Positions 505-28,272 of a DNA stretch of 64,000 bases are shown piece by piece. Numbering within the stretch: the stretch's first letter is position 1; the number at the start of each line of letters is the position of its first letter. The notes beneath the pieces are model-generated. The model saw only the letters and a list, made by a program, of their open reading frames with translations. It was not told the origin of the DNA and ran no database searches. The DNA is taken from NCBI GenBank assembly GCA_016193335.1, contig JACPSK010000001.1, positions 279,424-343,423 on the forward strand. The letters are read 5' to 3'. The position numbers and the translations under genes are program-made. This stretch comes from Candidatus Magasanikiibacteriota bacterium (GTDB lineage: Bacteria > Patescibacteriota > Patescibacteriia > Magasanikbacterales > UBA922).

Positions 505-1185
505 CTAGTTGAGATGTAGGATCTTCCGCAAAAGCGCCGGAACTTCTTTTTTGAAAAAAGACTTCACTTGGGGCCATGTAGCTTTGAAATAAATCTCCGG
601 TTCCGGGTCACTTTCCGCGTCCACAAAATACACCAAACTTTTCAGAATATGATGAAAATCGTGAGCAACAGACGGATACTGAATTTTTAATCTCTTAACG
701 GTATTTTCCAATGACTCAAGATGATTGGCGCACCAGTACAAATCAAAAAAATCTCTTTTCCTGCCACGCTGCGAGATAGCGACAATTTTCATGACCGCTA
801 TGTCCAGCGGATCCAAAATCCTTACTGTACCATGCCAGTGTGGTTTTTGTTTGGGAACAAAAAAGGGATAAGCGATAAAGCTAACCTTGGCTTTGAACAG
901 CTCACCGTAGATGGTATTTTCATCCTCGACTTGTATTGTCCAATCAGGGTTATCCAAAAATTTTGATAATAATCTCTTCATGTCAAAACTCTTTTTTTCA
1001 GTAAAAAAATCCAAATCAACAGATCTTCTATTCCCCGAATGGAGCGCAAGAGCAGTGCCTCCGGCCAAGTACCATTTAGACTTTTTAAGCCAATCTTGCT
1101 TTGACAAAAAATCAAAAGCTTTTTTGGTTTCTTTTGGTAATGTTTCAAAATGAAATGCTGCTAGCTGTGTGTTAGTAACTGCCAT
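505..1185 (-). CDS. Nucleotidyltransferase toxin, AbiEii/AbiGii family (type IV TA / abortive infection)
   Basis: 226 aa. Motif KWYLAGGTALALHSGNRRSVDLDFF is the pol-beta-type NTase signature typical of the AbiEii/DUF1814 family. Overlaps the upstream small ORF by 25 nt. Confidence 0.65.
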   Translation of the reverse strand: MAVTNTQLAAFHFETLPKETKKAFDFLSKQDWLKKSKWYLAGGTALALHSGNRRSVDLDFFTEKKSFDMKRLLSKFLDNPDWTIQVEDENTIYGELFKAKVSFIAYPFFVPKQKPHWHGTVRILDPLDIAVMKIVAISQRGRKRDFFDLYWCANHLESLENTVKRLKIQYPSVAHDFHHILKSLVYFVDAESDPEPEIYFKATWPQVKSFFKKEVPALLRKILHLN

Positions 1186-1385
1186 AATTGTTTAGTTTTG
1201 GGTCGCAAACAGCGAGATTTACCAACTACTTTTTTTAAGTGTTTTTTATCGTAAAAATTCCACATCCACCTTACTTCCTTGTCATTGCCAAAATCCAAAA
1301 TTCGCTCGATAACATATTGAGCGTTTTTACGCGGATCTATGTTCTTTGGATTGGTATCCCAAAATAATGCTTGTCTGAATTTCAT
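1161..1385 (-). CDS. Small protein upstream of and overlapping the AbiEii gene; putative cognate antitoxin/regulator
   Basis: 74 aa ORF whose stop overlaps the toxin start (operon coupling). Function inferred from position only. Confidence 0.35.
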   Translation of the reverse strand: MKFRQALFWDTNPKNIDPRKNAQYVIERILDFGNDKEVRWMWNFYDKKHLKKVVGKSRCLRPKTKQLWQLLTHS

Positions 1386-3166: not shown

Positions 3167-3251
3167 AATCCAAGGAAAAAATCAAAGCATATTCAAAAAA
3201 ACTGGCGAATGAGGCCAGTTTTTTCGTTTATGAAAAATTATCCAAAGTGTC

Positions 3252-6200
3252 TTATTCTCCGATATCCTCCGCGTCACAAACTTTCCATCCTTCAGGCACG
3301 GCGCAAGGCGTGGAAAAAATTTGGCACTGCACGCCCGCGCCGCTTTCCTTGGCATAGGTTATCATCTGAGCGCAGAGTCTTTTTTCTCGAACATCCCAAT
3401 GATTATAAACCGGCTTAGTATCAGTTTCAGGATTCTGTAATTTTATACCGGAGAGAAGCGAACCCCAATCCTCGCTCTTTACGTTTATTTCCAAAATGCC
3501 GCCTTCTTCGTCCAAAGGAACTTCCAAAATTATTAAGCGAGGCTCATCGCCAGGAATCCGATACAATTTTGAAGCTATATTTTGATAGAGAAAATCCTCT
3601 TTTTGAGAATCGGGAATAGGGTGAACGAGCAATTGCTTGAATATACTCAAGTATCCGCTCCCATCTTCGCTATTGATTGTCAGTCCTCCGTTCCATTGCT
3701 CCAAAGTCCAGGAACTGGGATACTCCATTTCGAAATTCGCGAAGGTATTATTTTTTATCAATGAACGCTGGGCTTTGAGCTCTTGGTCTTTCTGTTGCAA
3801 AACTTTTTCAACCGCCCGCTCTCGAATGCTCGCCGGTGTAATGTTCAATTCCGAACCGCGAGGAAAAGAACCTGCGGGATTCAAGACATCGGCGCAGCCG
3901 GCACCCAAGCTCATGAAACCGGCACTAAGGACGCCAAGAGCAAGCACCAAACTCACAAAAGCCTTATTGGTTCTTCTTCCTGTCTTTCCCAAGGTTTTTT
4001 CCGCGTACGCTACGCGCTCTCTCACACCGAGCACCGTATCCGGATTAAGAGAAATGCTGTCTATCCCCTGCTGAACCAAAAATTCAGCGAATTCAGGATT
4101 ATCGCTTGGCGCTTGGCCGCAAATCCCCACGGTTTTTTTGTATTTGTGAGCACTTTTTATTACCTGTTTAATGAGTGTCTTGACCGATTCGTCATCTTCG
4201 CTGTAGAGAGAACTTAAACGATCCGAATCACGATCAACGCCCAAAACCAATTGGGTGAGGTCATTGGAACCTATGCTGAATCCATCAAAAAGTTTCGCGT
4301 ATTCTTCGGCCAAAATGACATTCGAAGGAATTTCACACATCACAAATACTTTGAGCCCCTTCTGTCCTTGTTTAAGTCCATACTCTTCCATGGTCTTGAG
4401 GACTTTTTGACCTTCTTCCGGCGTGCGGCAAAAAGGAACCATCACAACAATATTGTCGAGACCCCATTCTTCGCGCGCTTTTTGTATGGCCTGGCATTCC
4501 AATTTGAAAGCAGGCTTGTAAGCCTTGGAATAATATCTGCTTGCTCCTCTCCAGCCGAGCATTGGATTTTCTTCTTTTGGTTCAAACTCAGCTCCTCCCA
4601 CCAGCGTGGCGTATTCATTGGTTTTGAAATCGCTCAGGCGCACCACCACTTCTTTGGGATAAGACGAAACGGCAATCCGCGCTATACCTTCCGCCAATTT
4701 ATCCACGCAATAATCCGTTTTCTTGGAATATCCCAAGGTGAGTTCGGCTATTTTTTTCTTTGCTTTTTTGTCTTTTAGTTTTGCGTAATGAACCAAAGCC
4801 AAAGGATGAATTCTTATAAAATTGCTGAAAATAAATTCAAGACGCGCCAATCCGATTCCATCATTGGGCAAAAAAGACAGAGAAAAAGCGTTATGGGGAT
4901 CTCCCATATTCATCATTATCTTTGTCTTGGTAGACGGAATATTTTGGATGGTAGAACGCTTGAGTTCGTAAGGCAGGATCCCTTTATAAATTCTGCCTTC
5001 TTCCCCTTCAGCGCAGCTCACGGTTATATTTGTTCCATCTTTAAGCACTTTTGTGGCGTTCTCTACTCCCACCACGCAAGGTACTCCCAATTCTCTCGAA
5101 ACAATCGCGGCATGGCTGGTCTTTCCGCCTTTTTCCGTTACAATCGCGCCGGCGATTCGCATGATGGGTTCCCAATCAGGATCTGTAACATGAGTTACCA
5201 AAACTTCGCCTTTTTTAAGAGACTTCATTTCTGAAGGTTTTTGTATGACACGCACTTTGCCCGCTCCGATTTTTTGCCCCACGGCCACTCCGGACAAAAG
5301 CAATTCGCCCTTATGTTTTAAACGATAGACCTCAAGAAAAGCATGATCTGAAAGGCTTTTTACGGTTTCCGGTCTTGCCTGCACAATAAAAAATTCACCC
5401 GTTTCTCCATCTTTGGCCCATTCTATGTCTTGCGGCTTCCCATAGTGCTCTTCTATAAGAAGAGCCCACTGCGCGAGCTGTAATGCTTCAGCTTCGTTCA
5501 GACAAAAACGATGTTGGTCTTTGGCAGACACCACCTGCTGTTTTGTCCCCGCGCTTTTCCCCGATACGAGTTTGATGTCTTTTTTGCCCAAAATCTTACT
5601 GATGAGAGCTTTTTTACCTTTTCTGAGTCCTTCTTTGAAAATATAATATTGGTCCGGATTTACTTTTCCTTTTACCACGTATTCTCCAAGACCATAGGAA
5701 GCGTCTATAAGCACCACACCCTGAAATCCGGATTCAGTATCCAAAGTAAACATAACGCCGCTGACTCCATTTTCCGCTCGGACCATGCGTTGTACTGCCA
5801 CAGAAAGAGCGACTTCCAAATGATCATAGCCTTTTGTTTCCCTATACGAGAGCGCTCGATCGGTAAAAAGTGATGCCATGCATTTGTGCACCGCTGATAG
5901 AACGGCTTTTTCTCCTCGTATGTTTAAAAAAGATTCTTGCTGACCCGCGAAACTGGCGGCTGGCAGATCTTCTGCCGTGGCGCTGGAACGGACCGCCACC
6001 AGACCGGGATCTCCGGACTTGGCGAGCGTTTTGTAAGCAAGAACTATTTCTTTTTGCAGAGTAAGAGGCAAAGAAGTGCTCATGATGAGTTTGCGCGCGG
6101 ATGAAGCCACGCGTTTCAATTGGCCAATATCGCGAACATCCACATTTTTGAGCAAAATTTTCAGCTTCTTTTTAAGCCCGGTGGATTCCAAAAAATCGCG

Positions 6201-6398
6201 GTATGCCCTTGCCGTGACCGCAAAACCGTCTGGCACGCGGATACCTTTTCTGCCGAGTTTGCCATACATTTCTCCCAGAGACGCGGTTTTGCCGCCAACC
6301 AAAGGAACATCTTGTATGGAGATGTCTTTGAACCAGAGAATACGCTGAAGTTCTCTTGAATCTGATTTCATGGCAAAAATAAGGTCTGAATGAGACAA
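3252..6398 (-). CDS. ppsA: Phosphoenolpyruvate synthase (PpsA-like; ATP-grasp plus PEP-utilising His domain plus TIM barrel) with an unusual ~255-aa C-terminal extension carrying a lipoprotein-type signal/TM and an extracytoplasmic domain
   Basis: 1048 aa. N-terminal RVPDGFAVTARAYRDF, mobile His domain GGKTSHAAIVSRELGVPCVVG, C-terminal PEP-utilising TIM barrel GSNDLTQLVLGVDRD. After the canonical end (...VAYAEK) the frame continues without a stop through RRTNKAFVSLVLALGVLSAGFMSLGAGC (lipobox LGAGC) and ~220 more residues. Confidence 0.8.
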   Translation of the reverse strand: MSHSDLIFAMKSDSRELQRILWFKDISIQDVPLVGGKTASLGEMYGKLGRKGIRVPDGFAVTARAYRDFLESTGLKKKLKILLKNVDVRDIGQLKRVASSARKLIMSTSLPLTLQKEIVLAYKTLAKSGDPGLVAVRSSATAEDLPAASFAGQQESFLNIRGEKAVLSAVHKCMASLFTDRALSYRETKGYDHLEVALSVAVQRMVRAENGVSGVMFTLDTESGFQGVVLIDASYGLGEYVVKGKVNPDQYYIFKEGLRKGKKALISKILGKKDIKLVSGKSAGTKQQVVSAKDQHRFCLNEAEALQLAQWALLIEEHYGKPQDIEWAKDGETGEFFIVQARPETVKSLSDHAFLEVYRLKHKGELLLSGVAVGQKIGAGKVRVIQKPSEMKSLKKGEVLVTHVTDPDWEPIMRIAGAIVTEKGGKTSHAAIVSRELGVPCVVGVENATKVLKDGTNITVSCAEGEEGRIYKGILPYELKRSTIQNIPSTKTKIMMNMGDPHNAFSLSFLPNDGIGLARLEFIFSNFIRIHPLALVHYAKLKDKKAKKKIAELTLGYSKKTDYCVDKLAEGIARIAVSSYPKEVVVRLSDFKTNEYATLVGGAEFEPKEENPMLGWRGASRYYSKAYKPAFKLECQAIQKAREEWGLDNIVVMVPFCRTPEEGQKVLKTMEEYGLKQGQKGLKVFVMCEIPSNVILAEEYAKLFDGFSIGSNDLTQLVLGVDRDSDRLSSLYSEDDESVKTLIKQVIKSAHKYKKTVGICGQAPSDNPEFAEFLVQQGIDSISLNPDTVLGVRERVAYAEKTLGKTGRRTNKAFVSLVLALGVLSAGFMSLGAGCADVLNPAGSFPRGSELNITPASIRERAVEKVLQQKDQELKAQRSLIKNNTFANFEMEYPSSWTLEQWNGGLTINSEDGSGYLSIFKQLLVHPIPDSQKEDFLYQNIASKLYRIPGDEPRLIILEVPLDEEGGILEINVKSEDWGSLLSGIKLQNPETDTKPVYNHWDVREKRLCAQMITYAKESGAGVQCQIFSTPCAVPEGWKVCDAEDIGE

Positions 6399-6436: not shown

Positions 6437-7873
6437 TCAAACCTCTCTCACTTCGAGGACATTCACATGCCCGGATTCCCCCACCGGCTCTCCGGCGACC
6501 ACAATGATCTTGTCGCCCTTTTTTACTTGTTTATGTTTTTTTAGATAAACCATTGAACGCTCCACCAACTCTTCTATGGTTCTGCAAGGCGGGAGGACAA
6601 AAGGCGCCAGACCCCAAGACAAATTTAGCTGACGTTCTGTCCGCTCTGAATTGGTAGCCACCACGACCGGAAACTCAGGCCTGTTGCGGCTGATGAGCCG
6701 GCCTGTTTCTCCGCTGATGGAAGCGGCCAAAATAAGTTTTGCCCCAAGATCTTCGGCCGCCATCCGCGACATACGACTGATCACTTCATCCACAGAATGT
6801 TTTTTATGCGGGTTCTCCCGCGGGTGCAAGTCATCATAAGCGGATTCTTCGGTTTTCTCTATGATTTCCGACATGGTCTGGACAGTCTCCACCGGGTATT
6901 TTCCCGTGGCGGTTTCGTTGGAAAGCATTACCGCGTCCGCGTGGTCTATCACCGCGTTTGCCACGTCCGAGACTTCGGCTCTGGTAGGACGAGGATTATT
7001 TTGCATGGAATCGAGCATCTGTGTCGCCACGATAACCGGCTTTGCGTGATCAAGAGCCAAATCTATCAATTTTTTTTGCGTGAGTGGGACTTCGGCGGCC
7101 GGAATTTCTATGCCCAAGTCTCCGCGAGCCACCATGATGCCATCCACTACTTCGAGAATTTCGAGTATGTTCTGAACAGCTTTGCCTCGTTCTATTTTTG
7201 CGATTATTCTAATCGGCTGATCGGACACGATACCGCATTCTTTCTCATATTCTTTTATAAGATAACGTAAATCCAATATATCTTTGGCGCTGGTAACGAA
7301 GGAGAGCGCCATCAGGTCTACCTTCTGTTCGACTCCAAAACGCGCGTCCTTTTTGTCTTTTTCCGTAAGCGAGCTTACACTCAGATGCGAATCCGGTATA
7401 TTGATACCTTTGTGCGAGGTGATGGAACCGGAATTCAAAACCTTTGCGCTGATCCGAGTTCCTTCGACGCTTTCAATTTTTGTGCCCGTACGTCCATCAT
7501 TGAGCAGAAGCCGTTCTCCGCTCTGTACATGGGTATGCAATTCTTTGTAATCAACCGGAATCGCGGCGCCTTTATAGCTGTCTATGCTGGTGTCAAAAAT
7601 CACCGTGTCTCCTTCTTTTAATTCTATCCCCTCACCAGGCAAGACTCCAACTCTGATTTTAGGCCCTTGAAGATCTTGAAGCACGGCTATGGGTTCTCCG
7701 GTCTTTTTTCCAACCGAGCGAATATGTTCTATGAGCATCTGATGATTTTCATAGGTTCCATGTGAAAAATTCAAGCGAGCGATATTCATGCCGGCTTTAA
7801 CCATGGCGGTTATTTTCTCTATATTTTCGCAAGCAGGACCGATGGTACACACTATTTTCGTTCTTTTTTTCAT
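6437..7873 (-). CDS. pyk: Pyruvate kinase
   Basis: 478 aa. N-terminus MKKRTKIVCTIGPACENIEKI...NIARLNFSHGTYENHQ is the classic PK signature. Barrel and C-terminal regulatory domain present. Confidence 0.9.
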   Translation of the reverse strand: MKKRTKIVCTIGPACENIEKITAMVKAGMNIARLNFSHGTYENHQMLIEHIRSVGKKTGEPIAVLQDLQGPKIRVGVLPGEGIELKEGDTVIFDTSIDSYKGAAIPVDYKELHTHVQSGERLLLNDGRTGTKIESVEGTRISAKVLNSGSITSHKGINIPDSHLSVSSLTEKDKKDARFGVEQKVDLMALSFVTSAKDILDLRYLIKEYEKECGIVSDQPIRIIAKIERGKAVQNILEILEVVDGIMVARGDLGIEIPAAEVPLTQKKLIDLALDHAKPVIVATQMLDSMQNNPRPTRAEVSDVANAVIDHADAVMLSNETATGKYPVETVQTMSEIIEKTEESAYDDLHPRENPHKKHSVDEVISRMSRMAAEDLGAKLILAASISGETGRLISRNRPEFPVVVATNSERTERQLNLSWGLAPFVLPPCRTIEELVERSMVYLKKHKQVKKGDKIIVVAGEPVGESGHVNVLEVREV

Positions 7874-7956: not shown

Positions 7957-8424
7957 TTATTGAGGGTTTGGAGATTTTCCCGAGTATTGGTCGGGTCTTC
8001 CCACGTTCATTTGTTTGGATTCCAAAAAACGATCCACAGAAACTCCGGGAGGCAAAAACTGTTCTATGATAGAGCCGATATCACCCAAGGGAAGGCCCGC
8101 TGAAGAAGATCCGACAAACTGACTGTAAGTCTTTGTGAATTCGCGTATGAGAGGCGGCAAATAAATGGCGCCGAGAATAAAGGGGGCCAGGAACAAACAT
8201 AACTTGATATAATCTCCCACCGCTATGACCGTGAGCCGCCGTTTTATTTTTTTATTTTGCTGATAGATAAGCTCAGACCATTTGATATTTTTTTCCACTA
8301 ATTCCCGAAGCGACCCGTCAATATCCGGCGTATCTTGGATAGGCTTTTCCACTTTAGCCCTATCTTCATGAAGGGTGGTCATATTAGGTATGTGAAGTAT
8401 AAAAATTTTTGCGAATAATCTCAA
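7957..8424 (-). CDS. Hypothetical single-pass membrane protein, immediately downstream of nrdR
   Basis: 155 aa ORF, one hydrophobic segment (LCLFLAPFILGAIYL), 1-nt gap to nrdR. No recognisable domain. Confidence 0.45.
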   Translation of the reverse strand: MRLFAKIFILHIPNMTTLHEDRAKVEKPIQDTPDIDGSLRELVEKNIKWSELIYQQNKKIKRRLTVIAVGDYIKLCLFLAPFILGAIYLPPLIREFTKTYSQFVGSSSAGLPLGDIGSIIEQFLPPGVSVDRFLESKQMNVGRPDQYSGKSPNPQ

Positions 8425-16200: not shown

Positions 16201-19200
16201 TTAAAGCGAACATTTTTCTTCGGGTGGCAGAGGCATATTTTCTTTTATCTGACAGATATCTGTTTCTATAGTCTCAACAGGCTCTATACCATAACTGTAC
16301 GTGCCATCAGCCGAGGGACTTACCAAAAAATTAAAGACATGCCAGTACGGAGCCAAAGAATTACTGCTGGAATCGGCCGCGTCTTTTATATTAAAAGAAT
16401 AATCAGGCTGATACAAAGAATAGAGCGGCACTTGTCCTTCGTGGTAAGAATACACATCAACTTGAAGATTGCTATTTGTGTATGAGCCGAGAACATCATC
16501 CACCGCTTCCACGAAAAACCCATAAGAATGCGGCTGAGCAGTAACGATTATTGACGGGTCTATGGTAAAGGATTGGATAAAAGTCTTAGCGGCTCCCGCG
16601 ATTTCATGAACAAACACGCCGTTTGTTCCTGTGCAGCCACTTCCATTCAATGGAGCCGGCATCCAATACTCCTCGCTAACCGACCCCTCATCTGTTTGCA
16701 CGGTCTTATCGGTTTTTACCATAAATTTGCATAATTTTTGCAAGGGGTTAACAGCAGATTTCGCGTCAGCATAACGAATGAGCGCTTTCGTGGGATCTCC
16801 GCCGGAAAATTTCGCCAAACGAGAACTGTACAAGCCGCCGGAAAATATGCCGCCTTTCTTGTTTTCTTCGTCAGTCCAGCGAAGCACTACGCGAACGACA
16901 CCCTCAGGCACTGCCGGCGAAACAACCAATTCATTGACTATTTTTTCTTTTTCTCCATTCACCGGATAATCGAAGAAATGTTTCTTTTTGGCTTTGTATT
17001 GAAGCATTGAACCGCTTATGCCGGTGGCGGTCTGTATTCCAAGCCTGTTAAACGATAAAGCATATTCTTCTTTGCATAAAAGGTTTGCTTCTATATTACT
17101 TTCAGAGGTTATGAAGAAAGGATTTGAAGGAGTTTTAACAGTAATTAATGAAACATCATCGGGTTCCAGACTGAAGAAAGCACCCAAACCACCCTCTGTC
17201 TTAAGCTGTTTCCTGCCAAGAGACAAATCATAATCCGCCAGTTTCGCCCAATTCAAACCGGAACCCAGACTCTGTGTGTCTCCCCCTGTCAAAGGATCCA
17301 CCATTGGGTTGAGCAGAGCTAAAAGAGGCTCCGGGCCAAAGGTCTTTACGCCGCAGGCCACGCATTTGTTCTCCGGCTCTCCCAGACAATCGGAGGAACA
17401 AACCCAAGACCCTTTGTTTGTATAGTCCGGCCCCGCGTCGCAGACCAGCTGTTTTGAGTTGGCTTGTGATTTCTCCGCGACACAAGAGTCATAAGCCGCC
17501 ACGCAATCTTGTTTGCATTGAACATCGGAAACCAAAACTTTTTCCATAAAGGCGTCCGCGTCCGGGTTGTCTTCCCACGGTATTAATTCAAAAGGCAAGG
17601 GCTGGGCCGAGGTCCCATATAGCTTATTGCAGAGTTCTTTTGCCGGATCAGTGTATTGATCCCATTTTGTATAAGAAGAAAAGGAAACATTTACCCCACT
17701 GTTGATCCCTCCGATGGGAAAACCATAATAAGTATCAGGCACACCCTCTGGCGCATGGCCATAGGCCACGCGTATCCGATTTTGTGGATTGGCCGTGTTT
17801 TTGCAAATGTAGCCATCCAGGGTTTCTTTGCCGTATTTCCAAGGGCTTTGAAAATGATCCTCGCAATCGTTCTCGCAAGTCTGCACCTGAGTTTCGGCAA
17901 GACAAATATCCTGGACCTCGGCCAAGGTTTGGGGAATCAAAATAGCAGTACTACTAAAGGGCTCGCATTGCTCCGGACCGCTAATGAGCCCGTCTCCGCA
18001 AAATTCTCCCGAATCAATCGTCAAGATATTTTTACAATCCAATGAACAGTAATTGCAGGACTTGCCATAGACCGGACTGCATTTTACGCCGTTTTTGTCT
18101 TTTCCAAGATCACAGGCTTCTCCAATGTCTTGTTCAATTTTCCCATTGCCGCACTCTGCTTTGGCGATTTCCACGGTGCAAGACGAGGAACAACCGTCAC
18201 CGTCTTTTTTGTTGCCATCGTCGCAAGCCTCTGTCCCTTCTTTTTTTCCATTCCCGCAGAGAAGCGTTACCTCTTCAACTTCACAATAAGTATTACAGCC
18301 ATCGCCGTTTGTTTTGTTGCCATCGTCGCAAGCCTCGTATTCATGTTGGATTGATCCGTCTCCGCAATAATTGCCCACGGCCTTGCAATTCGCGGCGCAG
18401 CTGAATTCAGAAGAAAAATGATAGCTTGGATCTTTTAAGCAAGTATCAACGCAGTCTGAATTCTGGGAACAAGAAAGCCCCAGCGCCTTGCCGTTTGAAT
18501 TGTAGCAGGCGCCGTTCGTGCAAACCAAATTGAAATTACATTCATTCACCGCGCCACAAAGCGTATTCGCGTATTTGCAATATCCCGGTTTCTGCGCGTA
18601 TTTTGCTTCAGCTATATCACAGACTTCTTTGCCCGCTTGCACCAAACCATCTCCGCAATAAGCGGGATGCAGACCCTGGCAGGCCCCGACTTTGCTTCCG
18701 TCCGATAGAGCGCTCTTGCTGTCCGCGCAATGTCCATAGGTTCCATTCAAAGCTCCGTCATCGCATTTTTCTCCTGATTCTACCACGCCATTGCCGCAGG
18801 TATATGAAGCCGTGCAAAGGCCATACTCCCATGTTTTGCAATCTTGGCTACATATACTTTTAGCGAAATTACCCGTGGGGCATTGACCCAAGCCGCCCTG
18901 AATCGCGCCCACACATTGATCAAACTCCCAAGTAACACTCTTGGCGCAAGTAAGCGTCTGCTGATTTATTGCAACATATTGATTGAAGCCATCTTGGTTT
19001 AAAATATTCGGATTCGCATTGTCTAAATCGACAATACCGAATGAAGTGGCATCGTAATACGAGGCTGTTCTGCATTCACTGTCAGAGGAACAACCAAAGG
19101 CAACAAGTTTCAAACCGCCAGGCTCCCAAGTGGAGACAAGCTGATCATAAATTATCTCTTGAGCATTAGAGGACTTCGAATTGATACAGACTCCCTCTTT

Positions 19201-22200
19201 ATTTGTAAGCAAAATTCCGGCTCCATCCAAGTCTACATATTTTGGACAGTCTACTGATGCATTTAAGCAGGCTATGCCCGGGCTGAGGACGCAAGACCCT
19301 TCTTTTTGAGCGATATTCCCTATCTTTGAATACAAAAGCTGCCCCGGCGGATCGCATTCTTCCGCAGGACCCACGATTCCATTCCCGCAAGTTTCGTCAA
19401 AAGGATTCACGGGCAGAGGTAAGGCGGACTGACACCATTGTTCATCAGTAAAAGACTGAGTATCTATGAGGCCGCTTACGATTTCATCGTCAAGATTGAA
19501 AAATTCCAGATTTCCATGCAACACATAGCCTTGAGTGTCCTTTTGATATTCATACTCATACACGCTCGAAAAAGCCGGACACATGTACAGTGACTTGCTT
19601 TCATTCCAACAAGTATTGGGGTCCTGCAAGACGCAAGAATCATTTTCACCGGGGCAATCTTGATCTGAAGCGCAACCCAGAAAAACGCCTTGCTCTTCGG
19701 AACTGCCGCCCAAACACAATCCGCAAGAAGACCAACGGTTGATAGGATCCACCGGCAAACCACCCACCGAGGCGGCCAAAGTAGCACTCCAGGAAGGCCA
19801 TTTTGAGACCGTGTAACCCGGGACGAAAGTGCCGGACTTAAGATCTCCTTTAAAAGTCGGCAGACCTTCATTGGTGCTGAAATGGGTATTTATGTTTTTG
19901 AGAGCTTGCTGAATGCCGGGCAAACGCGCCCAATCTCTGAAAAACTTTGTTTTTGCGTTGGAACAAACACCGCTCGTCGTCGGGAGACCTTGGGCATCAA
20001 CCAGAGGCGAACCGCCGGCATCTCTGCAGTCAAAATCCGTTTCACAGGTTTTATCGGTTATATCATTGGCGTCTTCGCCAAAACGAATATCAAAAGATCC
20101 GTCTGCCATGCAATATTTGTGATCGCTCAAATTTGTATTGAACTCAAGTGAAGATACGAGCTGTTCCAATACGTCTTTTGTAGAAGAATCAGCGTCCGGA
20201 TTGATACTCAATAAATATATGTTATTAAATATGTCGCTTCCCGCTCCGTCCTCCACGAAATTCAAGGCGTTGACATAATAATTGGTATTGTCGCTGAGAG
20301 CTTCATAATTCGCGACGTTTTTCTCTTGCATAGTCCCCAAATCTTCAAATTTTTCAGCGTACCAGGCGCCCAAGGATTTCGCTTTCCCTTCTTCATCCAT
20401 GTTTTTAAAAATTTGCAGTCCGACCACATCTTTATTTTCCGGTTTATCATTGAAAAAGAGAATTTTGCGCAAAACATCTTGAGCCAACAATTTTTTGCCT
20501 TCATCCACTTCAAAAGAAATATCAACGCAAGAATCCGTCACTTTCCAAGCGACAGAAGCGTTAACGCAACTTTCATTCTGAGCCTGGTCACAATCCGCGC
20601 TTGCGGAGCAAGATATATATGTTGAACCATAAAGCGGCGGATATTGTATATTCCCGTTCGCGTCCGTTTTTCTGCAAAATTTTTCCGTGGGCAATGACGT
20701 CAACTTGCAACCATTTGTTTTTAACTCGACGGCGCTCAATTCCAGCTTGCACTCAGGAGTATACATAGGATAGCCCGGACTCGTGTTGACAGCGGGAAGA
20801 TTATACAAAGGAACGCATTGGCTGTCTTCCAAGCAAGAAGTTCCGGGTGCCAGCAAACAATTCCCCGGAACTTTAATTTGGACGTCTTGTTCATTTTGGA
20901 TCTCAAATATATTGTTCAAAAACGGCAAGTCGTCCGAGGTGTCACCGGCGTTACCGGCGTCCGCGCAATAACTCATGCTAAAATTGTACTTCTCGTCTTT
21001 CCACGGCGACCATGAACCATCGGCTTCAAAAGCCGGCCAAGGGTTTTCACAAAAATTCGCGGTCAAATCCATGATTTCGGTAAATTTAAAGCCCTCTTGG
21101 CTGTCTTCGCCCTTGTCGGTTATGATTTCAGCCGCGACAATACCATTGATATGGCCCTCCACGTCTTTGGAGCTAATCGTATTGTCGGGTTTGTTGATAT
21201 CCGGAATATCAAAAATGATATTGTTCACCGGATCCCATTTCCAAACCCAATCATAGACATCTTTAATGGGCACGATAAACTGTCCGTTCGCGCTCTCCGC
21301 TTTTACATTGAAATCCTTTCCTTGGCCGGGTTTATTGAACAAATAGGAATCCGGATCCACTTGAATATCTTTTATCTTGCAAATTTCATTTCCTGTTTTG
21401 AAAACCCAAATATCATCTCGAACCAGCAAGAAAGAATCCGCACTTTTAATGCCCACCCCGTCAATATCTCGTATGCCGGTTAAGCCACCATTCAAGAGGA
21501 CGCCATAAATACTGTTTTCATCCAAAAGCTTTCCTATATATATGGAAACAAGAGAAGCTTTAAGCGGCGTCTCACCGGCTACTGTTATTGTTTTGGCTTC
21601 AAAAGAAACCGGGATTTCACCCGCGCACCAGGTTTGTATATCGGTTAAATCTTTGATTTCAAAATAAGAAAGCGCGAAAGCTATCTTATTGAACAGCATC
21701 ACGAAAAAGTCTTTTATTTGTTTCCACATTTGATAAAAAAATCCGCCGTCGCTCTTGAGAACCAAAGTATTTATACCCATGGCATCCTGAACTTTTTCAG
21801 TAATGTCGTATCCGCCCGAACTTGCACAGTCATAGCCGGCCTCGGGATGTGCTTTTACTATGACTATATTATTATTGAGCGAGTCAACTTCAATTTCTTT
21901 GTTAAAACGCGCTTCTATATATGTGTTTCTGCATACGGCATTGTCAGGATCTCCGATCCCTGCTTGACCGGGAGGGTACTCTTCATATCTCAAAGGCCGA
22001 AGAGCACAGCAAGAATTATAAGCCACACCATAGAGATTGCCCCCATTCCCCCCGTTCACTACGCAATCATTATATTGTTCACTGACATCCTGAACTTTAA
22101 ATTCGGTGTACCCGCATTGAAGCGTATAATCTCCTGAACCGGAAGCATCATTGGGGATGCCAGGATTGCCATCTAACTTCACAGTGATGTCCGTGTTTTG

Positions 22201-25200
22201 CTTTCCATCCGTGACTGTGCCTTTCCCTATGGCGGTCACTACCTGCACCGGGCTACTGCTCGTAAAGTTGAAATTCAAAGTTTCCGCCGCTTTCTCGCAT
22301 TGACCATACTCTCCAAGACCAACTTTTCCTCCTGTTGCAAGTCCGTCGCCGCAAATTGATGAAGAAAAATATTTGGGTGAAGAACCAAGGAGCTGACATT
22401 CATCAGAGCAGCCTTCTAAACCTTTTTGACAACGGAAACCATTTTGTTGCGCGCTTGAATATTCGGGTATATTGGTGGAACAAATGTTTCCTTGGAGAAG
22501 ACAACGGGATCCACAGGCCGCTTTCGCCGCGTTTGTCTCTATCATAACATTTTCAGCGTAGTTACCGGCCACGTACACTTTGTTATTAATGACTTCGCAT
22601 TCTTCTCCATCCTCTATAACCGCATTGCCACAGATACTGAGGGATTCTTGACAGGCTTCTGCTTCTTCTTTGCTTTTGTTTGTTTTTTGTTCGCACCAGT
22701 AAGTAGCCAGCTGGGTGCCTATGTGTAAGCAGGTATCAGTACAAAATATATTTGACTGAGATTTATCCGTAGCGTCTTCGTAACTCAAGGCCATGTCACA
22801 GGCCTCGCCAAGACCCACCTCTCCGTCCCCGCACCACGATTGCCCCACCAACTCTGAATTGAACTGGCTGTAAGGCAGAGAACCTGTCAGCGCAGCGCCT
22901 TCTGGCGTGCTGGAACTGAATAGACAGTGCGTATCGCAGACACCCTCAGCCCATTTCAAGGTTCCGTCAGCGTTCTTTTCATTCAAATCACAATCTTCAC
23001 CCGGATCTTTTACGCCATTCCCGCAGAGAGGAAATGTTAATAAGACCGCGTTCGATAAATCACTGCCTTTCGGCAAACATAAAGGAGAACAAAAATCAGA
23101 CCATCCGAAACCGGTATGAAAATTGCTCACTGAAGCGACACTATTCCCATCCAGTTCATCTTTGTCTTCCGGGGTATACCAATCATACCCATAGTCCCAT
23201 TTATTCAATTTTTGTCCGTATTTGCTACATTCGTTTGGAGAACTGTAAGGAACAACGCCGTATTTTGTCTTCTCTCCTATGTTATAGGCAGTAAATGGAT
23301 CCGGTTCTACTTTGAGATCATTGGCCGCGCAAGGCGTGGCATCATTTTTTGTCTTAAATATCCATTCAAAAGGCTGGAGAGCTTTCCCTTGTTTAAAACT
23401 TCCATCCCCATTGATGAAATCAATGGAACGAATGGCAGAACTGAGACTCACCTTGTAATAGGTATTTTTGTCCAGAGAATCCGGATCCACCACCAATTTT
23501 AATTTGTTACTGCTATCAATATCATAAGCAGTGTTTGATATCTGCGTGGGATTGACGCAATTCGCGTTGTCACATTTGAACAAAACGAAACCCGCCTCAT
23601 AGGTGGACGGATCCATGTGTCTGTTGAAATGCGCGGCAATACTCGCGTTGATGCAAGATTCTGAACAATTTGGTTCCCAATAGATAACTTTCGGATCCCC
23701 AAGTTGGATATTAAGCAGACTGTAAGGCGACAAAAGCGTAGTAAGAGCTCCGGCCCCTTCTGTGGCTTCTTTGATAACAATTTCAGCCTCTGCTTCGATA
23801 TGAACAGGGGTAATGGCTGTATCTTCTTTTGCTCTGGCGATCCCTCTCGTATCTGTGTATTGAGGCGGATTTGGCCAATTATGAGCCGTAGCTTTGACAA
23901 GATCAGAACTGTCCCACACCCAACCTTTGCCGTCCACCGGAAGGACCGAACATTCCTGATCTCCATACCCGTTGATGAAATAATGCAAAGGATTAGTCGG
24001 AACCGCGAATATATCTTCCATATCTTGAACCGGATACTTGGGGTCCTGAACAGTACCCAGTTTGTCGGTGCTGTATTGAATGGGATTAACACCGGCATTG
24101 CTCAATACGCATAATTTATCATTGGTTTTGAAAGCGAAACAATAGGCAGTGCCTTCGCCGCAGGGTCTGGTTTCCTTGAGTGAACCGCTCTGGATCACCG
24201 ATTCGCCGAGAAGCTGAACGGTTTCCTGTGATTTGATATCTTTGGAAAGTTCAACATTGTACCAAGTATTGGGCGATAAATACGTCTCAGGGCTGTCATT
24301 TTCTTTTATAATCAAGATCTCATTCTCCAATTTCAAATCAAGGTTTGTTAGCTGTTCTTTTTTTGCGGCGCAATCCATGGCTCCGTCTTCAGCAGTATCG
24401 CAGACATAGACCTTCACATTATTGGAAGTGAGGGTGCCCGTATCCATGGACATACTGAAACGAACCGCGATACTCGCGTTTTTGCAGGAAGCTTCTCCCA
24501 ATTTCAGATTCTGTTCCCAAGGAGTTGGAGATGGAAATTCCTGCTGAATGTCAAGTTTATTCCAATTCGCCACATTACAATCCTCAATCACATAAGGACG
24601 GTTGGGTATGAGGCCCGTGGTAAAACGCCATACATATCCCGCGTCACGGGTTTCTCCGGGGCACACATAACCATTACCTATCCATTGACCAGCCCCCGGT
24701 CCTTCGGTACAGCAGGTATATCCGGTACCCGGAGCTGTGGCTCCCGTTTCTCTGCAATCTGAAACAGTGTAGAGCACTCCGTTGCTTACTTGCTCTGAAT
24801 CTGATTTTACTTTTATAAGTCCGCTCTGCATGGAAAGACCGGTACCCACATCTACAGGAAGCAATGTCCTAACCAAGGTATCAACAGACTGCAAAATGAC
24901 ATTTTCGCCGCCGAATTTGTCTTGCTCAGAATTCAGCCAGGTGTTGAGCGTATCGGCTTGAGCCCCGTTCTGCCAATAATACACCGTTGGATCGGTGGAA
25001 AAACCATAACCTCTGATATACAAACCCTCGCTCTCTTTGGGCAAAGGAGCCGGGCCTTTATTCGGGTCGAGCAAACAGATGCTGGGTAAAGGCAGACCTT
25101 CATATACTCCAAAAGTATCCAGGCCATTTGAATGCAAAGGCCCGTCGCCTCTTTGAACAATAAGATAATAATTCCCCGCGATCATAGAATCCGGAACCTG

Positions 25201-28200
25201 CACTATAACCTGTGTGTCAGACCAGGTGTCTTTGCAATACGCAGGAAGAGTGGCGTTGGCTTGTGCACAGGTTCCGTCATCCGGACTGCATTCATGACCC
25301 TCTTCGCTTGTAAGATATACGATGCCCGTACTTTCTCCAAAATTCTTTCCAAAAATCGTTATGTAGCTCCCCGGAGTGCTTGACACCGGATCTATGCTTT
25401 CAATGATTGGAGCAAGATCTTTCAAATCTCCGGCCAAAACTTGAAAAGGAACCGCGTTGCTTGTTTTCCCTCCCACTTGCACGGTAACCGGGACCTTGCC
25501 CACGGCAGTATTAAAAGGAACGAGGGACTGTAAGAAATTATCAGTCCATTTATCTTGGTCTACTTGGGCTATGACGCCGCCAAAATCCAGGTTACTCGTC
25601 GCACCCTTTATATTGCCAAAGGATTTGCCATAGGCCTGAATGTCGGTATTCGGCAAAGCGGAAGAAAATTTGTATGAATCTGCCGTAACTACGGCGCAGA
25701 GACCGGGCCGAACGGTTTCATTTTTTATGAAATACCCCGGCTTGCCGCCTGTAATCTGGTCATATTCTTGTTTTGTCAAGTAGCCTTTCGCGGCCGCGTC
25801 CGGGTCTGGGACAGGGTTAGGCCCAAATGCATCGTCGCTTAAATCAAACAAACTCGGGTCGTCTCCCCTGCTCACGCGTATGGCGCTTATCTGGCCCAGG
25901 GCTCCATAGGATCCAAAAACTCCGGTCTGATTGAATAAAGGATTGCTTTCCTTGCTTATTTGAATCGGCGCTTTGCCGTTGACAATATTTACCGGATTTT
26001 GATCGAAAAAACGCAGATACAAGCTAGGCTCAAGAGAAAGGGCCGCGTCTTTGTAATGATCCAAACCTGCCAGAGGATCGTACAAAGCCGCTACCTGGCT
26101 ATCTGACAATGGGGATTCGTACATCAAAAATTCATCTATACTGCCCTTAAAATACAGAGGGGTGAATATAGAACGTTTGCCCAAGTTAATCCCATTTACA
26201 TTTGATTGGGTCAGAGAGCCGGCGCTGAGAGCTGTGGTCTTGAGGACTTTCCCATCAAGATACAAAGCTATTTGTCCGAGAACACTGTCAAAACTTGCCA
26301 CTACATGGTGAAAAACACTGGGAGTAGCAAAGGGAGATGAGATACGTCTGTATTTTGACACGGTCGGATCGAACATTTCGAAATTTATATGCTTCGACAA
26401 ATCAGGGAGCGTATTGAGATACAAACTCCAGCCTCCTCCCGCTTGGCTGAGCCCGCCTCCGGCTACGACTTCAAGACCAGTCTTGCTCCCCTCTCCTCTT
26501 ATCCAAGCGCTTACTGAAAAAGAAGCGGGCGCCTGCTTATATATAGGACTCGGGTTTATACTCAAAGAATCATCCACGCCATCAAAAGCAATGGCGTTAC
26601 CTTTTGGGGCGGGGTTGGGAACTTCCACCACTACAAAACTATCCTGCCAGGTGCTCTTGATCACTTCACTGCACTCCGCCAATTTTGCTTCAATCCATTC
26701 GCTATCTTCATATTCTCCGCTGTCATTTAAATCGGTGGCAAATTCAACTTTCCCGATTTTGGAACCGAAATAATTACCCAATATACTTATCCAATTCCCG
26801 GAAGCCCCGTCCTGCGGAACAATATCCGTGATTTGAGGATATTGCACGCAGGTGTTGTTCACACACTTTAGTCCGGCAGAGCAAGGAGTTGATTCATCAC
26901 AGTAGGCTCCTTCTTCCGCCCCACAAGGTCCGCCGGCGTCAACGTCAGTCTCCCCTTTATCTTTGTCAAATTCTCCGTTGGCGCAATATCCGGGATACAC
27001 GAAAAAATAGGTCTGTTTTTCTGAACTGTTGTGGTCTATATCAAACACCGCGGCTGTAACAATATACTTTGTTTTCGCCGGAATGCCTGAGCCCAAAAAT
27101 AAAGGATAGCTGAAGGTAAAAGGGTTTGCCGATTCATTTTTGTAAGGACCGTCGTAAATGTCGAACACATCTGCCCCATTCTCCGAAGCAATATACAGAT
27201 GGACGTATCCAAGACCAGAATCATCTTCAACGGTAAATTCTATCGGATATGTATTGTTGCTATAGAGCTTGATGCCAGGCTCAACGCTCGGGTTCCCGTC
27301 TGGCAATACAAACTGTATGCCCGTTTTATAAACAGGCGCGGTTTTATCATTAATCTTCTGGTTAACCCCGAAATCGACTTCTTTGAATGTCTCCACGCCG
27401 CAGACAGTACCCTCTTCCAATTTCTCGCCATTAGTCGATTCTATTTCTTTGGGAACTTCAACAAGATATTTGCTATCTGAAAGCGGCAGGCAAGTTTGTC
27501 CTTCTGTTTTGTTTTCATCCGCGCAGTTCTGCTCTTCTCCGGCGTACTTATATCGAGCCTGAATTACTTTTTTACTGTCATCAACAAAGCTGATATCAAA
27601 TAAAGTTGTTATGTCTTCTTTGGTTAATTCATTGTTCCCTCTGTATATTTTCAGAGCGTCTCCCGGAGCAGTGCCCAAGGCCTTACTAAAGACCGCGCGG
27701 ATCACGATATTATTCATGTCTGTGACATCTTGGCTCGGCGTAATGCTTTTCACCACAAAGTGCTGTTCAAAACAAGAACCATAGCCACCCCCGCCGCCAT
27801 TACACTCGGCAACCGTTTGGCAGCCCCCGCCCCCGCCTCCTCCACCTGCGCCAGTGGCCTCCGCGAGCTTGTCCAAGACAAATTGGGTGATGGCGAGAGA
27901 AGACAAAATAATAGCAAGGCCTATAGTGCCATTTATCAAAATTTTCCGCGCTTGCAAAATCTTGTCTTCACTGCCTCCGGCGGTCATGTACACATATCCG
28001 CCGTACAATATAATACCAAGGGCTATGACCCCCAAAAGCCCAAGAAAAATTCGGATTATTTTTGCCACGGTAACGCGAATATCCTGGACTTCCAAATTCA
28101 CGGTTTCGTTTATCTTGGCCACGCCAAAGGTATCGCCTTGCGCCATGGCAAAATCGCTCCACGCAAAAGAAAATAGACCATAAAATAGAAACACGAAAAA

Positions 28201-28272
28201 ACATGGTAGGCCTATTTTGTACAATATTGTGCGAAGAGCTTTGTTCATAGGTAAAACGGAAAGTTTATTCAC
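16201..28272 (-). CDS. Giant (4023 aa) cell-surface adhesin-like protein. N-terminal signal plus two-helix membrane hairpin (TrbC/VirB2-pilin-like), then LamG/ConA-like, IPT-like, Ig-like and many Myxococcus-type Cys-rich (CGDG...ECDDGN..GDGC) repeats
   Basis: Single uninterrupted 12,072-nt ORF whose start overlaps the upstream gene stop by 8 nt. Motifs read from the translation: IIRIFLGLLGVIALGIILYGGYVYMTAGGSEDK...IGLAIILSSLAI, Gly8 linker, LamG block (SFSVSAWIRG...LYLDGKVL), and tandem CGNGKKEGTEACDDGNKKDGDGCSSSC-type repeats (~18150-18420). Confidence 0.8.
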   Translation of the reverse strand: MNKLSVLPMNKALRTILYKIGLPCFFVFLFYGLFSFAWSDFAMAQGDTFGVAKINETVNLEVQDIRVTVAKIIRIFLGLLGVIALGIILYGGYVYMTAGGSEDKILQARKILINGTIGLAIILSSLAITQFVLDKLAEATGAGGGGGGGGCQTVAECNGGGGGYGSCFEQHFVVKSITPSQDVTDMNNIVIRAVFSKALGTAPGDALKIYRGNNELTKEDITTLFDISFVDDSKKVIQARYKYAGEEQNCADENKTEGQTCLPLSDSKYLVEVPKEIESTNGEKLEEGTVCGVETFKEVDFGVNQKINDKTAPVYKTGIQFVLPDGNPSVEPGIKLYSNNTYPIEFTVEDDSGLGYVHLYIASENGADVFDIYDGPYKNESANPFTFSYPLFLGSGIPAKTKYIVTAAVFDIDHNSSEKQTYFFVYPGYCANGEFDKDKGETDVDAGGPCGAEEGAYCDESTPCSAGLKCVNNTCVQYPQITDIVPQDGASGNWISILGNYFGSKIGKVEFATDLNDSGEYEDSEWIEAKLAECSEVIKSTWQDSFVVVEVPNPAPKGNAIAFDGVDDSLSINPSPIYKQAPASFSVSAWIRGEGSKTGLEVVAGGGLSQAGGGWSLYLNTLPDLSKHINFEMFDPTVSKYRRISSPFATPSVFHHVVASFDSVLGQIALYLDGKVLKTTALSAGSLTQSNVNGINLGKRSIFTPLYFKGSIDEFLMYESPLSDSQVAALYDPLAGLDHYKDAALSLEPSLYLRFFDQNPVNIVNGKAPIQISKESNPLFNQTGVFGSYGALGQISAIRVSRGDDPSLFDLSDDAFGPNPVPDPDAAAKGYLTKQEYDQITGGKPGYFIKNETVRPGLCAVVTADSYKFSSALPNTDIQAYGKSFGNIKGATSNLDFGGVIAQVDQDKWTDNFLQSLVPFNTAVGKVPVTVQVGGKTSNAVPFQVLAGDLKDLAPIIESIDPVSSTPGSYITIFGKNFGESTGIVYLTSEEGHECSPDDGTCAQANATLPAYCKDTWSDTQVIVQVPDSMIAGNYYLIVQRGDGPLHSNGLDTFGVYEGLPLPSICLLDPNKGPAPLPKESEGLYIRGYGFSTDPTVYYWQNGAQADTLNTWLNSEQDKFGGENVILQSVDTLVRTLLPVDVGTGLSMQSGLIKVKSDSEQVSNGVLYTVSDCRETGATAPGTGYTCCTEGPGAGQWIGNGYVCPGETRDAGYVWRFTTGLIPNRPYVIEDCNVANWNKLDIQQEFPSPTPWEQNLKLGEASCKNASIAVRFSMSMDTGTLTSNNVKVYVCDTAEDGAMDCAAKKEQLTNLDLKLENEILIIKENDSPETYLSPNTWYNVELSKDIKSQETVQLLGESVIQSGSLKETRPCGEGTAYCFAFKTNDKLCVLSNAGVNPIQYSTDKLGTVQDPKYPVQDMEDIFAVPTNPLHYFINGYGDQECSVLPVDGKGWVWDSSDLVKATAHNWPNPPQYTDTRGIARAKEDTAITPVHIEAEAEIVIKEATEGAGALTTLLSPYSLLNIQLGDPKVIYWEPNCSESCINASIAAHFNRHMDPSTYEAGFVLFKCDNANCVNPTQISNTAYDIDSSNKLKLVVDPDSLDKNTYYKVSLSSAIRSIDFINGDGSFKQGKALQPFEWIFKTKNDATPCAANDLKVEPDPFTAYNIGEKTKYGVVPYSSPNECSKYGQKLNKWDYGYDWYTPEDKDELDGNSVASVSNFHTGFGWSDFCSPLCLPKGSDLSNAVLLTFPLCGNGVKDPGEDCDLNEKNADGTLKWAEGVCDTHCLFSSSTPEGAALTGSLPYSQFNSELVGQSWCGDGEVGLGEACDMALSYEDATDKSQSNIFCTDTCLHIGTQLATYWCEQKTNKSKEEAEACQESLSICGNAVIEDGEECEVINNKVYVAGNYAENVMIETNAAKAACGSRCLLQGNICSTNIPEYSSAQQNGFRCQKGLEGCSDECQLLGSSPKYFSSSICGDGLATGGKVGLGEYGQCEKAAETLNFNFTSSSPVQVVTAIGKGTVTDGKQNTDITVKLDGNPGIPNDASGSGDYTLQCGYTEFKVQDVSEQYNDCVVNGGNGGNLYGVAYNSCCALRPLRYEEYPPGQAGIGDPDNAVCRNTYIEARFNKEIEVDSLNNNIVIVKAHPEAGYDCASSGGYDITEKVQDAMGINTLVLKSDGGFFYQMWKQIKDFFVMLFNKIAFALSYFEIKDLTDIQTWCAGEIPVSFEAKTITVAGETPLKASLVSIYIGKLLDENSIYGVLLNGGLTGIRDIDGVGIKSADSFLLVRDDIWVFKTGNEICKIKDIQVDPDSYLFNKPGQGKDFNVKAESANGQFIVPIKDVYDWVWKWDPVNNIIFDIPDINKPDNTISSKDVEGHINGIVAAEIITDKGEDSQEGFKFTEIMDLTANFCENPWPAFEADGSWSPWKDEKYNFSMSYCADAGNAGDTSDDLPFLNNIFEIQNEQDVQIKVPGNCLLAPGTSCLEDSQCVPLYNLPAVNTSPGYPMYTPECKLELSAVELKTNGCKLTSLPTEKFCRKTDANGNIQYPPLYGSTYISCSASADCDQAQNESCVNASVAWKVTDSCVDISFEVDEGKKLLAQDVLRKILFFNDKPENKDVVGLQIFKNMDEEGKAKSLGAWYAEKFEDLGTMQEKNVANYEALSDNTNYYVNALNFVEDGAGSDIFNNIYLLSINPDADSSTKDVLEQLVSSLEFNTNLSDHKYCMADGSFDIRFGEDANDITDKTCETDFDCRDAGGSPLVDAQGLPTTSGVCSNAKTKFFRDWARLPGIQQALKNINTHFSTNEGLPTFKGDLKSGTFVPGYTVSKWPSWSATLAASVGGLPVDPINRWSSCGLCLGGSSEEQGVFLGCASDQDCPGENDSCVLQDPNTCWNESKSLYMCPAFSSVYEYEYQKDTQGYVLHGNLEFFNLDDEIVSGLIDTQSFTDEQWCQSALPLPVNPFDETCGNGIVGPAEECDPPGQLLYSKIGNIAQKEGSCVLSPGIACLNASVDCPKYVDLDGAGILLTNKEGVCINSKSSNAQEIIYDQLVSTWEPGGLKLVAFGCSSDSECRTASYYDATSFGIVDLDNANPNILNQDGFNQYVAINQQTLTCAKSVTWEFDQCVGAIQGGLGQCPTGNFAKSICSQDCKTWEYGLCTASYTCGNGVVESGEKCDDGALNGTYGHCADSKSALSDGSKVGACQGLHPAYCGDGLVQAGKEVCDIAEAKYAQKPGYCKYANTLCGAVNECNFNLVCTNGACYNSNGKALGLSCSQNSDCVDTCLKDPSYHFSSEFSCAANCKAVGNYCGDGSIQHEYEACDDGNKTNGDGCNTYCEVEEVTLLCGNGKKEGTEACDDGNKKDGDGCSSSCTVEIAKAECGNGKIEQDIGEACDLGKDKNGVKCSPVYGKSCNYCSLDCKNILTIDSGEFCGDGLISGPEQCEPFSSTAILIPQTLAEVQDICLAETQVQTCENDCEDHFQSPWKYGKETLDGYICKNTANPQNRIRVAYGHAPEGVPDTYYGFPIGGINSGVNVSFSSYTKWDQYTDPAKELCNKLYGTSAQPLPFELIPWEDNPDADAFMEKVLVSDVQCKQDCVAAYDSCVAEKSQANSKQLVCDAGPDYTNKGSWVCSSDCLGEPENKCVACGVKTFGPEPLLALLNPMVDPLTGGDTQSLGSGLNWAKLADYDLSLGRKQLKTEGGLGAFFSLEPDDVSLITVKTPSNPFFITSESNIEANLLCKEEYALSFNRLGIQTATGISGSMLQYKAKKKHFFDYPVNGEKEKIVNELVVSPAVPEGVVRVVLRWTDEENKKGGIFSGGLYSSRLAKFSGGDPTKALIRYADAKSAVNPLQKLCKFMVKTDKTVQTDEGSVSEEYWMPAPLNGSGCTGTNGVFVHEIAGAAKTFIQSFTIDPSIIVTAQPHSYGFFVEAVDDVLGSYTNSNLQVDVYSYHEGQVPLYSLYQPDYSFNIKDAADSSSNSLAPYWHVFNFLVSPSADGTYSYGIEPVETIETDICQIKENMPLPPEEKCSL

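Follow-up and report, generated by a model that had tools for sequence, protein, structure and literature searches.

A 64,000-nucleotide stretch of the genome of Candidatus Magasanikiibacteriota bacterium (NCBI GenBank assembly GCA_016193335.1, contig JACPSK010000001.1, positions 279,424 to 343,423), referred to here as the window, carries a ppsA gene for phosphoenolpyruvate (PEP) synthase whose reading frame runs on into a hydrophobic segment and a further domain. The product is probably a single polypeptide, a bitopic and likely dimeric PEP synthase that is anchored in the membrane and carries a binding domain on the outside. What was established directly comprises the reading frame and its conservation, the integrity of the catalytic motifs, the invariant cysteines and the predicted fold. 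A literature search did not turn up any account of a PEP synthase that is anchored in the membrane or extended outside the cell.

One minus-strand frame leads without a stop from GVRERVAYAEK (aa 791-801) into TLGKTGRRTNKAFVSLVLALGVLSAGFMSLGAGCADV, confirming the continuous open reading frame (ORF), here 1048 aa long, that a preliminary description of this DNA had noticed. The ATG at 6371 is the more likely start, in preference to the TTG at 6398. Past the end of the PpsA models lie 245 residues, all encoded by stop-free codons, a run with a chance probability of about 2.6e-6 given the base composition of the window. The extension begins with EKTLGKTGRRTNK, followed by a 22-residue hydrophobic stretch, the sequence LGAGC containing Cys835, and about 210 further residues; its cysteines lie at positions 835, 1009, 1025, 1032 and 1041. 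No match to the 245 residues was found in Pfam or NCBIfam. A terminator search gave nothing terminator-like at the junction between PpsA and extension, and an intrinsic terminator directly past the stop codon of the ORF ends the transcription unit. Upstream, the pyruvate kinase gene lies on the same strand and forms an apparent operon with the fused gene.

By every sequence test, the protein belongs to the PpsA family. The Pfam domains occur in canonical order, with PPDK_N at aa 32-349 (PF01326, E-value 3e-116), the mobile phospho-His domain at aa 395-465 (PF00391, 6.5e-27) and PEP-utilizers_C at aa 487-799 (PF02896, 1.3e-63). The equivalog models NF005057 (1159.6 bits against a cutoff of 598; model positions 4-792 of 798) and TIGR01418 (1130.3 bits against a cutoff of 739.75) span aa 17-803, essentially their whole length, with C-terminal ends at residues 801-803. 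All eight catalytic and substrate-binding motif blocks that were checked, including those of His429 and Cys760, are identical to canonical PpsA, and the PEP-binding motifs WRGASRY, FCRT, MCEIPSN and GSNDLTQ are also intact. The module is thus predicted, from its sequence, to be a complete and catalytically competent enzyme. In ultra-small symbionts that possess both pyruvate kinase and PpsA, the latter has been argued to work in the ATP-yielding direction, from PEP, AMP and Pi (PMC10266531); by analogy, the PpsA of the window may do so too.

The first relative to be found, a metagenomic fragment (P0001), shows the same junction (EKTLGKT), basic stretch and helix, followed by LGVGC, with 39% identity in the extension. 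A profile that included the PpsA C-terminus of P0001 was searched against a library of 1.84 billion cluster representatives. About two-thirds of the 150 matches listed were ordinary PpsA, and the size of the family is known for the listed members only; among these, many proteins of 920-1070 aa align in a single stretch with both the C-terminus of PpsA and the extension, which places the fusion in at least 40 clusters. When one genome per GTDB species was scanned with a six-sequence alignment as the query, 23 loci emerged, most of them labelled as Candidatus Magasanikbacteria or Patescibacteria; 19 of these loci keep the catalytic His and Cys in an open frame of 1033-1095 aa. Scanning metagenomes yielded 28 more loci, and all those not cut by a contig end are fused. 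About 40 independent assemblies therefore contain the full-length fusion, namely 19 species-representative genomes and about 22 metagenome contigs, and conservation of the extension at the protein level reaches about 50 other loci.

The gene order nrdR, small membrane ORF, pyruvate kinase and fused ppsA is likewise conserved. In the window, the ORF between nrdR and pyk (7957..8424, minus strand) encodes 155 aa with a hydrophobic segment and without a Pfam match, and its position is kept in many related loci. Intact orthologues are 64-75% identical in the PpsA part, which at the sequence level indicates strong purifying selection on the enzyme, and 35-47% identical in the extension. Because many independent assemblies carry diverged fused genes, the fusion is not a propagated artefact. 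These relatives place the window in a Magasanikbacteria-like bacterium of the Candidate Phyla Radiation, an assignment with which its other genes agree. The preliminary description had left open two readings, a cytoplasmic enzyme that a membrane anchor ties to an outside domain, or a gene whose stop had been lost by mutation or sequencing error. The comparison of ppsA orthologues in related genomes that it proposed supports the former, as the extension is conserved, and the latter was rejected since the same in-frame junction recurs across these assemblies at such divergence.

Residues 813-831 form the strongest hydrophobic window of the entire protein and its only strong hydrophobic segment; the 22-residue stretch has transmembrane length, and a basic cluster lies on its N-terminal side. 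Conservation was computed over 50 distinct junction sequences of the type found in the window (type A). For E-K-T-[LV]-G-[KR]-x-G-K-K-T, the juxtamembrane motif, conservation is 88-96%, and small residues recur within the helix at positions -13 (98%), -10 (100%), -9 (84%) and -5 (68%) relative to the Cys, on one helical face. In all 50 sequences, the helix ends in G-[AGS]-G-C. The conservation of both the motif and the small-residue face indicates more constraint than a disposable signal peptide needs, and the pattern fits helix-helix packing. PpsA and PPDK enzymes dimerise via their C-terminal domain, which makes a dimeric anchor plausible.

The preliminary description had seen a textbook lipoprotein signal at this position, which is an overstatement given the transmembrane length and the residue at -3; LGAGC is lipobox-like only. 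Compared with the lipobox [LVI][ASTVI][GAS]C, positions -2 and -1 match, while -3 is Gly; Cys835 lies at residue 835 of the ORF, whereas about 15-35 residues from the start are expected for an N-terminal lipoprotein signal peptide. A sister subfamily (type B) lacks the Cys tail of the extension; its helix closes with G-[YF]-[TGS]-C, where Thr usually occupies -1, and the Cys is missing altogether from a few members. Judged by its sequence, GYTC is not a lipobox, so that the Cys at the helix end is usually conserved, yet not always within a lipobox.

An in-frame TTG does exist at 3992-3990, as the preliminary description had pointed out, and a product starting there would resemble a lipoprotein precursor. 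Its proposed role as an independent start was rejected: orthologues have TTG, CTT, ATT, GTG, TTA, GTT, CTA or GTA at this position, and none of those compared has a Shine-Dalgarno sequence before it, the upstream bases being GAA AAA AC-. Neither lgt nor lspA was found among the genes of the 64-kb window, which says nothing about the whole genome. In related loci, neighbouring genes encode canonical N-terminal lipoprotein signals, so lipoproteins are probably made in this lineage.

An alignment of 23 extensions contains eight invariant positions, four of which are the Cys of the tail, and the start of a helix beyond Cys835, (I/V)(T/S)PAxIR, is conserved. AlphaFold2 models built from family alignments were confident, with pLDDT (predicted local distance difference test) values of 82.4 when the extension was modelled as a whole and 88.4 when the domain was modelled by itself. 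The prediction runs from a transmembrane helix through a floppy linker and a helix of 22 residues to a beta-sandwich that has nine strands and one short helix, and it ends in a small tail module with four Cys. Foldseek searches of the PDB with both models returned PsbP, the type VI secretion (T6SS) immunity protein Tsi3 and BT_1490 at the top and DcrB, LpqN, Mtc28 and Mog1 lower down (probability about 1.0, E-values of about 4e-4 to 1e-2, template modelling score (TM-score) 0.38-0.54 and identity 10-15%, all for a predicted model). The outside domain is accordingly modelled with a Mog1/PsbP-like fold, a resemblance at the level of the fold only. With the PsbP, PsbP_2 and DUF1795 profiles, the window protein gave no match and one of 23 members matched PsbP_2 at E=0.03. 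A sequence search of the PDB with the extension gave nothing at E<=10, word-indexed protein searches with extension profiles gave 2-9 matches and no new stand-alone homologues, and no paralogue of the extension was found elsewhere in the 64-kb window.

Two metagenomic high-GC predicted lipoproteins of about 335 aa (P0155 and P0156) contain tandem copies of the Cys-tail module (YARDPETGxC...CDVPDGW), with weak Kazal-like matches at their C-termini. Because tandem copies recur in these unrelated proteins, the four-Cys tail is a separable, mobile module, predicted to be disulfide-bonded. The window also has genes for a DsbA-like thioredoxin and, at 34903..36099 on the minus strand, for a protein with a CAP (cysteine-rich secretory) domain, which at the sequence level suggest an active extracytoplasmic disulfide proteome in this organism. 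The DsbA-like gene, the basic residues N-terminal of the helix and the invariant Cys together point to an extracytoplasmic location with two disulfides. The conserved Cys pairs that had been proposed for this region are likewise overstated: the tail has four invariant Cys, whose outside location and pairing are predicted features.

Eight motif blocks were tabulated across the family. All eight are canonical in the window protein, in the 19 genome loci and in a few members of the library. The phospho-His, the catalytic Cys or the Arg/Asn/Asp motifs have been lost in two genome loci (L016 and L018) and in about 25 library members among the matches listed, and two metagenome loci outside the table (L048 and L054) lack both the His and the Cys motif. 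These four loci share the nrdR-pyk synteny and are thus orthologues, not stray paralogues. Their PpsA parts are 24-49% identical or below detection: that of L016 contains a broken frame, that of L048 has 24% identity and that of L054 is undetectable by tblastn. In L048 and L054, pyruvate kinase is 62% and the extension 33-38% identical, the latter at the level of intact orthologues. Since the extension stays conserved where PpsA decays, the helix, the outside domain and a PpsA-sized scaffold are by this measure under selection independently of PEP synthase chemistry, which indicates that the tethered outside module has a selected function of its own. Retention of the scaffold with the extension argues against two halves that merely share a promoter and then separate.

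In the model that we favour, an active PpsA would operate in the cytoplasm, with its C-terminus held at the inner face of the membrane by the conserved basic motif EKTLGKTGRRTNK. A single transmembrane helix would cross the membrane with N-in/C-out topology and probably dimerise, and a helical stalk, the PsbP/Mog1-like beta-sandwich and a small four-Cys module with two disulfides would be displayed outside. The anchor most likely arose by fusion of ppsA to a downstream lipoprotein gene, whose signal peptide would have been kept as a permanent anchor, and Cys835 may still be lipid-modified. The outside domain would bind a partner, either a protein or an envelope component, as its structural relatives do. 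Partner binding would confine PEP/pyruvate interconversion to the membrane and possibly regulate it; of the degenerate relatives, the scaffold alone would be tied. The protein could possibly even act as a transmembrane receptor enzyme, its outside domain sensing a cue from a host or from the envelope and so gating PEP/pyruvate conversion.

Several points weigh against this model. We infer the topology, the dimerisation, the disulfides, the absence of cleavage and the binding or regulatory role; membrane insertion, topology and non-processing of the fusion are predicted from sequence, dimerisation is made plausible by motif spacing and general knowledge of PpsA and PPDK, and the role as a binding module is argued by analogy with other proteins. 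The fold matches of the model are modest (see the TM-scores and identities above) and come without a sequence-level family match. G-[AS]-G-C satisfies a permissive PROSITE-type lipobox pattern, so that processing by Lgt and LspA may occur. In one contig of 3x coverage (L026, nt 1-60), a net 16-nt difference makes the TGA of ppsA overlap the ATG of a separate extension ORF, which begins MAHEDKYKKTNKKYLSLVAMVGIMGAALIGLGAGC and resembles a proper lipoprotein precursor, apparently with its own N-terminal signal peptide. This locus is either a natural split form or an error; if real, it may hint at the origin of the fusion.

These last two points bear on a reading of the fusion as a polyprotein, in which, once the helix has inserted, Lgt attaches a lipid to Cys835 and signal peptidase II cleaves just ahead of that residue, so that the fusion serves co-expression and not physical coupling, yielding a PEP synthase that is tail-anchored (or later released) and a surface lipoprotein in a 1:1 ratio. 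The invariable G-[AGS]-G-C right after the helix, which meets the permissive pattern, the lipoprotein signals near related loci in a lineage that probably makes lipoproteins, the apparent stand-alone ORF of L026 and the lipoprotein status of the structural neighbours DcrB and LpqN would all suit it. The signal, however, lies 800 residues from the N-terminus, and we know of no processing of a lipoprotein signal so far into a protein. The residue at -3 is Gly and not Leu, Val or Ile, the sister subfamily mostly has Thr at -1 and in some members no Cys, and neither the conserved juxtamembrane motif nor the small-residue helix face is necessary for a signal peptide that is discarded. Full-length degenerate PpsA scaffolds kept before the extension are also hard to explain if the halves separate. 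The lack of an Lgt or LspA gene within the window also speaks against cleavage, in a stretch uninformative for the whole genome. We regard this reading as unlikely, though deserving of serious weight. In its specific form, it is doubtful: with an internal lipoprotein signal, the helix would insert behind 800 cytoplasmic residues, Cys835 would receive a diacylglycerol group, and cleavage by signal peptidase II would leave the tail-anchored enzyme inside the cell and, in stoichiometric amount, a PsbP-like lipoprotein outside. This would, to our knowledge, be the first lipoprotein to mature from the C-terminal half of a cytoplasmic enzyme precursor.

It is scarcely credible that two genes have been misread as one, with the PpsA stop lost by error or recent mutation and the lipoprotein made from the TTG at 3992. 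The in-frame TTG with its precursor-like product, and the frames broken near the junction in the low-coverage contigs L026 and L027, would agree with such an arrangement. The identical in-frame junction in about 40 assemblies at 35-47% extension identity speaks against it, as do the frequent CTT, TTA, CTA, GTT, GTA and ATT codons at the TTG position and the missing Shine-Dalgarno sequence. The apparent split gene P0153 (L027) was set aside because it lies on a 1.6x contig with many broken genes and the entire ppsA in pieces. The stand-alone domain P0002 (L002) was likewise rejected as a 600-bp ENA (European Nucleotide Archive) contig in which an assembly hairpin makes a false start, its nt 1-24 being the reverse complement of nt 80-103 with one mismatch; three further stand-alone proteins (P0154, P0157 and P0032) are all cut by contig ends and uninformative. 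A different objection concerns the enzyme itself, whose PpsA module could be a pseudoenzyme with a regulatory or scaffold role, or a phosphotransferase for another substrate, the real function residing in the outside domain. The catalytic His, Cys and Arg motifs are gone from many family members, syntenic orthologues among them, in which the architecture is nevertheless kept, and PEP-utilising three-domain enzymes have been recruited to other substrates, with the rifampicin phosphotransferase and prodigiosin ligase models giving distant matches to the window protein in the NCBIfam search. For the window protein, this is improbable: every motif checked is canonical, the score is about twice the equivalog cutoff, the PpsA part is highly identical among intact orthologues, and the gene lies in an apparent operon with pyruvate kinase.

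The membrane-anchored PEP synthase that we favour shares its three-domain architecture and catalytic motifs with canonical PpsA (792 aa in E. coli), which is soluble and ends at about residue 790-800, whereas the window protein adds 245 residues comprising a membrane helix and an extracytoplasmic domain. In the multimeric archaeal PEP synthase (MAPS) of Staphylothermus marinus, a short soluble C-terminal helix reportedly bundles the subunits into a giant cytoplasmic complex. MAPS and the window protein are alike in that a functional C-terminal extension of PpsA alters, or is predicted to alter, its quaternary state or location; they differ in that the extension described here consists of a transmembrane helix and a folded outside domain. 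PknB-type Ser/Thr kinases with PASTA domains and ToxR/CadC-type regulators are bitopic N-in/C-out proteins, and ToxR and CadC carry periplasmic disulfides. The predicted layout of a cytoplasmic module, a basic juxtamembrane segment, a single helix and an outside domain, likely in a dimer, is the same at the sequence level; the cytoplasmic module is a central-metabolism enzyme and not a kinase or DNA-binding domain, so the likeness is one of layout only. Many Mog1/PsbP-fold proteins lie outside the cytoplasm, and several of them are lipoproteins whose mode of action is to bind a partner protein. PsbP/CyanoP, Tsi3, BT_1490, DcrB (DUF1795), LpqN/Mtc28 and Mog1 resemble the outside domain at the level of the fold, and the four-Cys tail is absent from these families. 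With lipoprotein precursors, the substrates of Lgt and LspA, the junction shares at the motif level a basic n-region, a hydrophobic stretch and a small-small-Cys end; their signal is N-terminal, whereas the segment in the window starts at about residue 800, has transmembrane length and has Gly at -3.

Table 1 Positions in the window of the fused ppsA gene, its parts and associated features
Feature	Position	Strand	Remarks
Whole ORF (ppsA, transmembrane helix, outside domain)	3252..6398	-	1048 aa; stop at 3254-3252
PEP synthase module, aa 1-803	3990..6398	-	NF005057 and TIGR01418 above cutoff
Catalytic phospho-carrier His429	5112..5114	-	in GGKTSHAA
Catalytic Cys760	4119..4121	-	in GICGQAPSD
Basic juxtamembrane motif E-K-T-[LV]-G-[KR]-x-G-K-K-T-x-K, aa 800-811	3966..4001	-	contains in-frame TTG 3992-3990
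Single transmembrane helix (predicted), aa 812-834	3897..3965	-	small residues at -13, -10/-9, -5 and -3 to -1 relative to Cys
Cys835, outer helix end	3894..3896	-	lipobox-like L-G-A-G-C
Low-confidence linker, then helix with (I/V)(T/S)PAxIR, aa 836-876	3771..3893	-	possible stalk
Beta-sandwich domain, Mog1/PsbP-like fold, aa 878-989	3432..3767	-	predicted model and Foldseek
Cys-rich tail HWDVRExRxC...C...PC..P..W..C	3255..3401	-	four invariant Cys (1009, 1025, 1032, 1041)
Intrinsic terminator	3194..3226	-	13-pair stem and T run; directly past ORF stop
Pyruvate kinase gene	6437..7873	-	38 nt upstream of ppsA ORF
DsbA-like thioredoxin gene	45353..46003	+	capacity for extracytoplasmic disulfide formation

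Other features of the window were noted in passing. A giant 4023-aa ORF (16201..28272, minus strand) has a T4SS_pilin-like N-terminus followed by Laminin_G_3, TIG, Big_5 and DUF4215 domains, and looks like a giant surface protein of the Candidate Phyla Radiation type, as judged from its domains. The same pilin-like N-terminus is found on the flanking ORF (28265..30433, minus strand) and on a plus-strand ORF that also has a VanY domain (49550..51913). A 793-aa aldehyde dehydrogenase (58181..60712, plus strand; Aldedh, 594.7 bits in two matched stretches) is unusually long, and an 843-aa ORF on the opposite strand (58292..60673) has no family match and is presumably a shadow ORF. An AbiEii-type nucleotidyltransferase toxin gene (505..1185, minus strand) is overlapped at its upstream side by a small ORF (1161..1385, minus strand) that could encode the antitoxin. 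A 152-aa protein (36159..36617, minus strand) consists of the DnaA C-terminal helix-turn-helix domain only.

PEP synthase is usually seen as a soluble housekeeping enzyme; the window protein and its relatives would represent a lineage-wide, membrane-bound version with a surface-exposed domain. The annotation 'pyruvate,water dikinase', the one source name found for a family member, hides the 245 extra residues. The lipobox-like Cys offers a testable case of whether the lipoprotein machinery acts on an internal signal, and the repeated loss of catalytic motifs, with the tether and outside domain kept, provides a natural series from enzyme to pseudoenzyme. The PEP/pyruvate node serves ATP recovery from AMP, gluconeogenesis and the supply of PEP for cell-wall synthesis, and these ultra-small, probably symbiotic bacteria may couple it to something at the cell surface.

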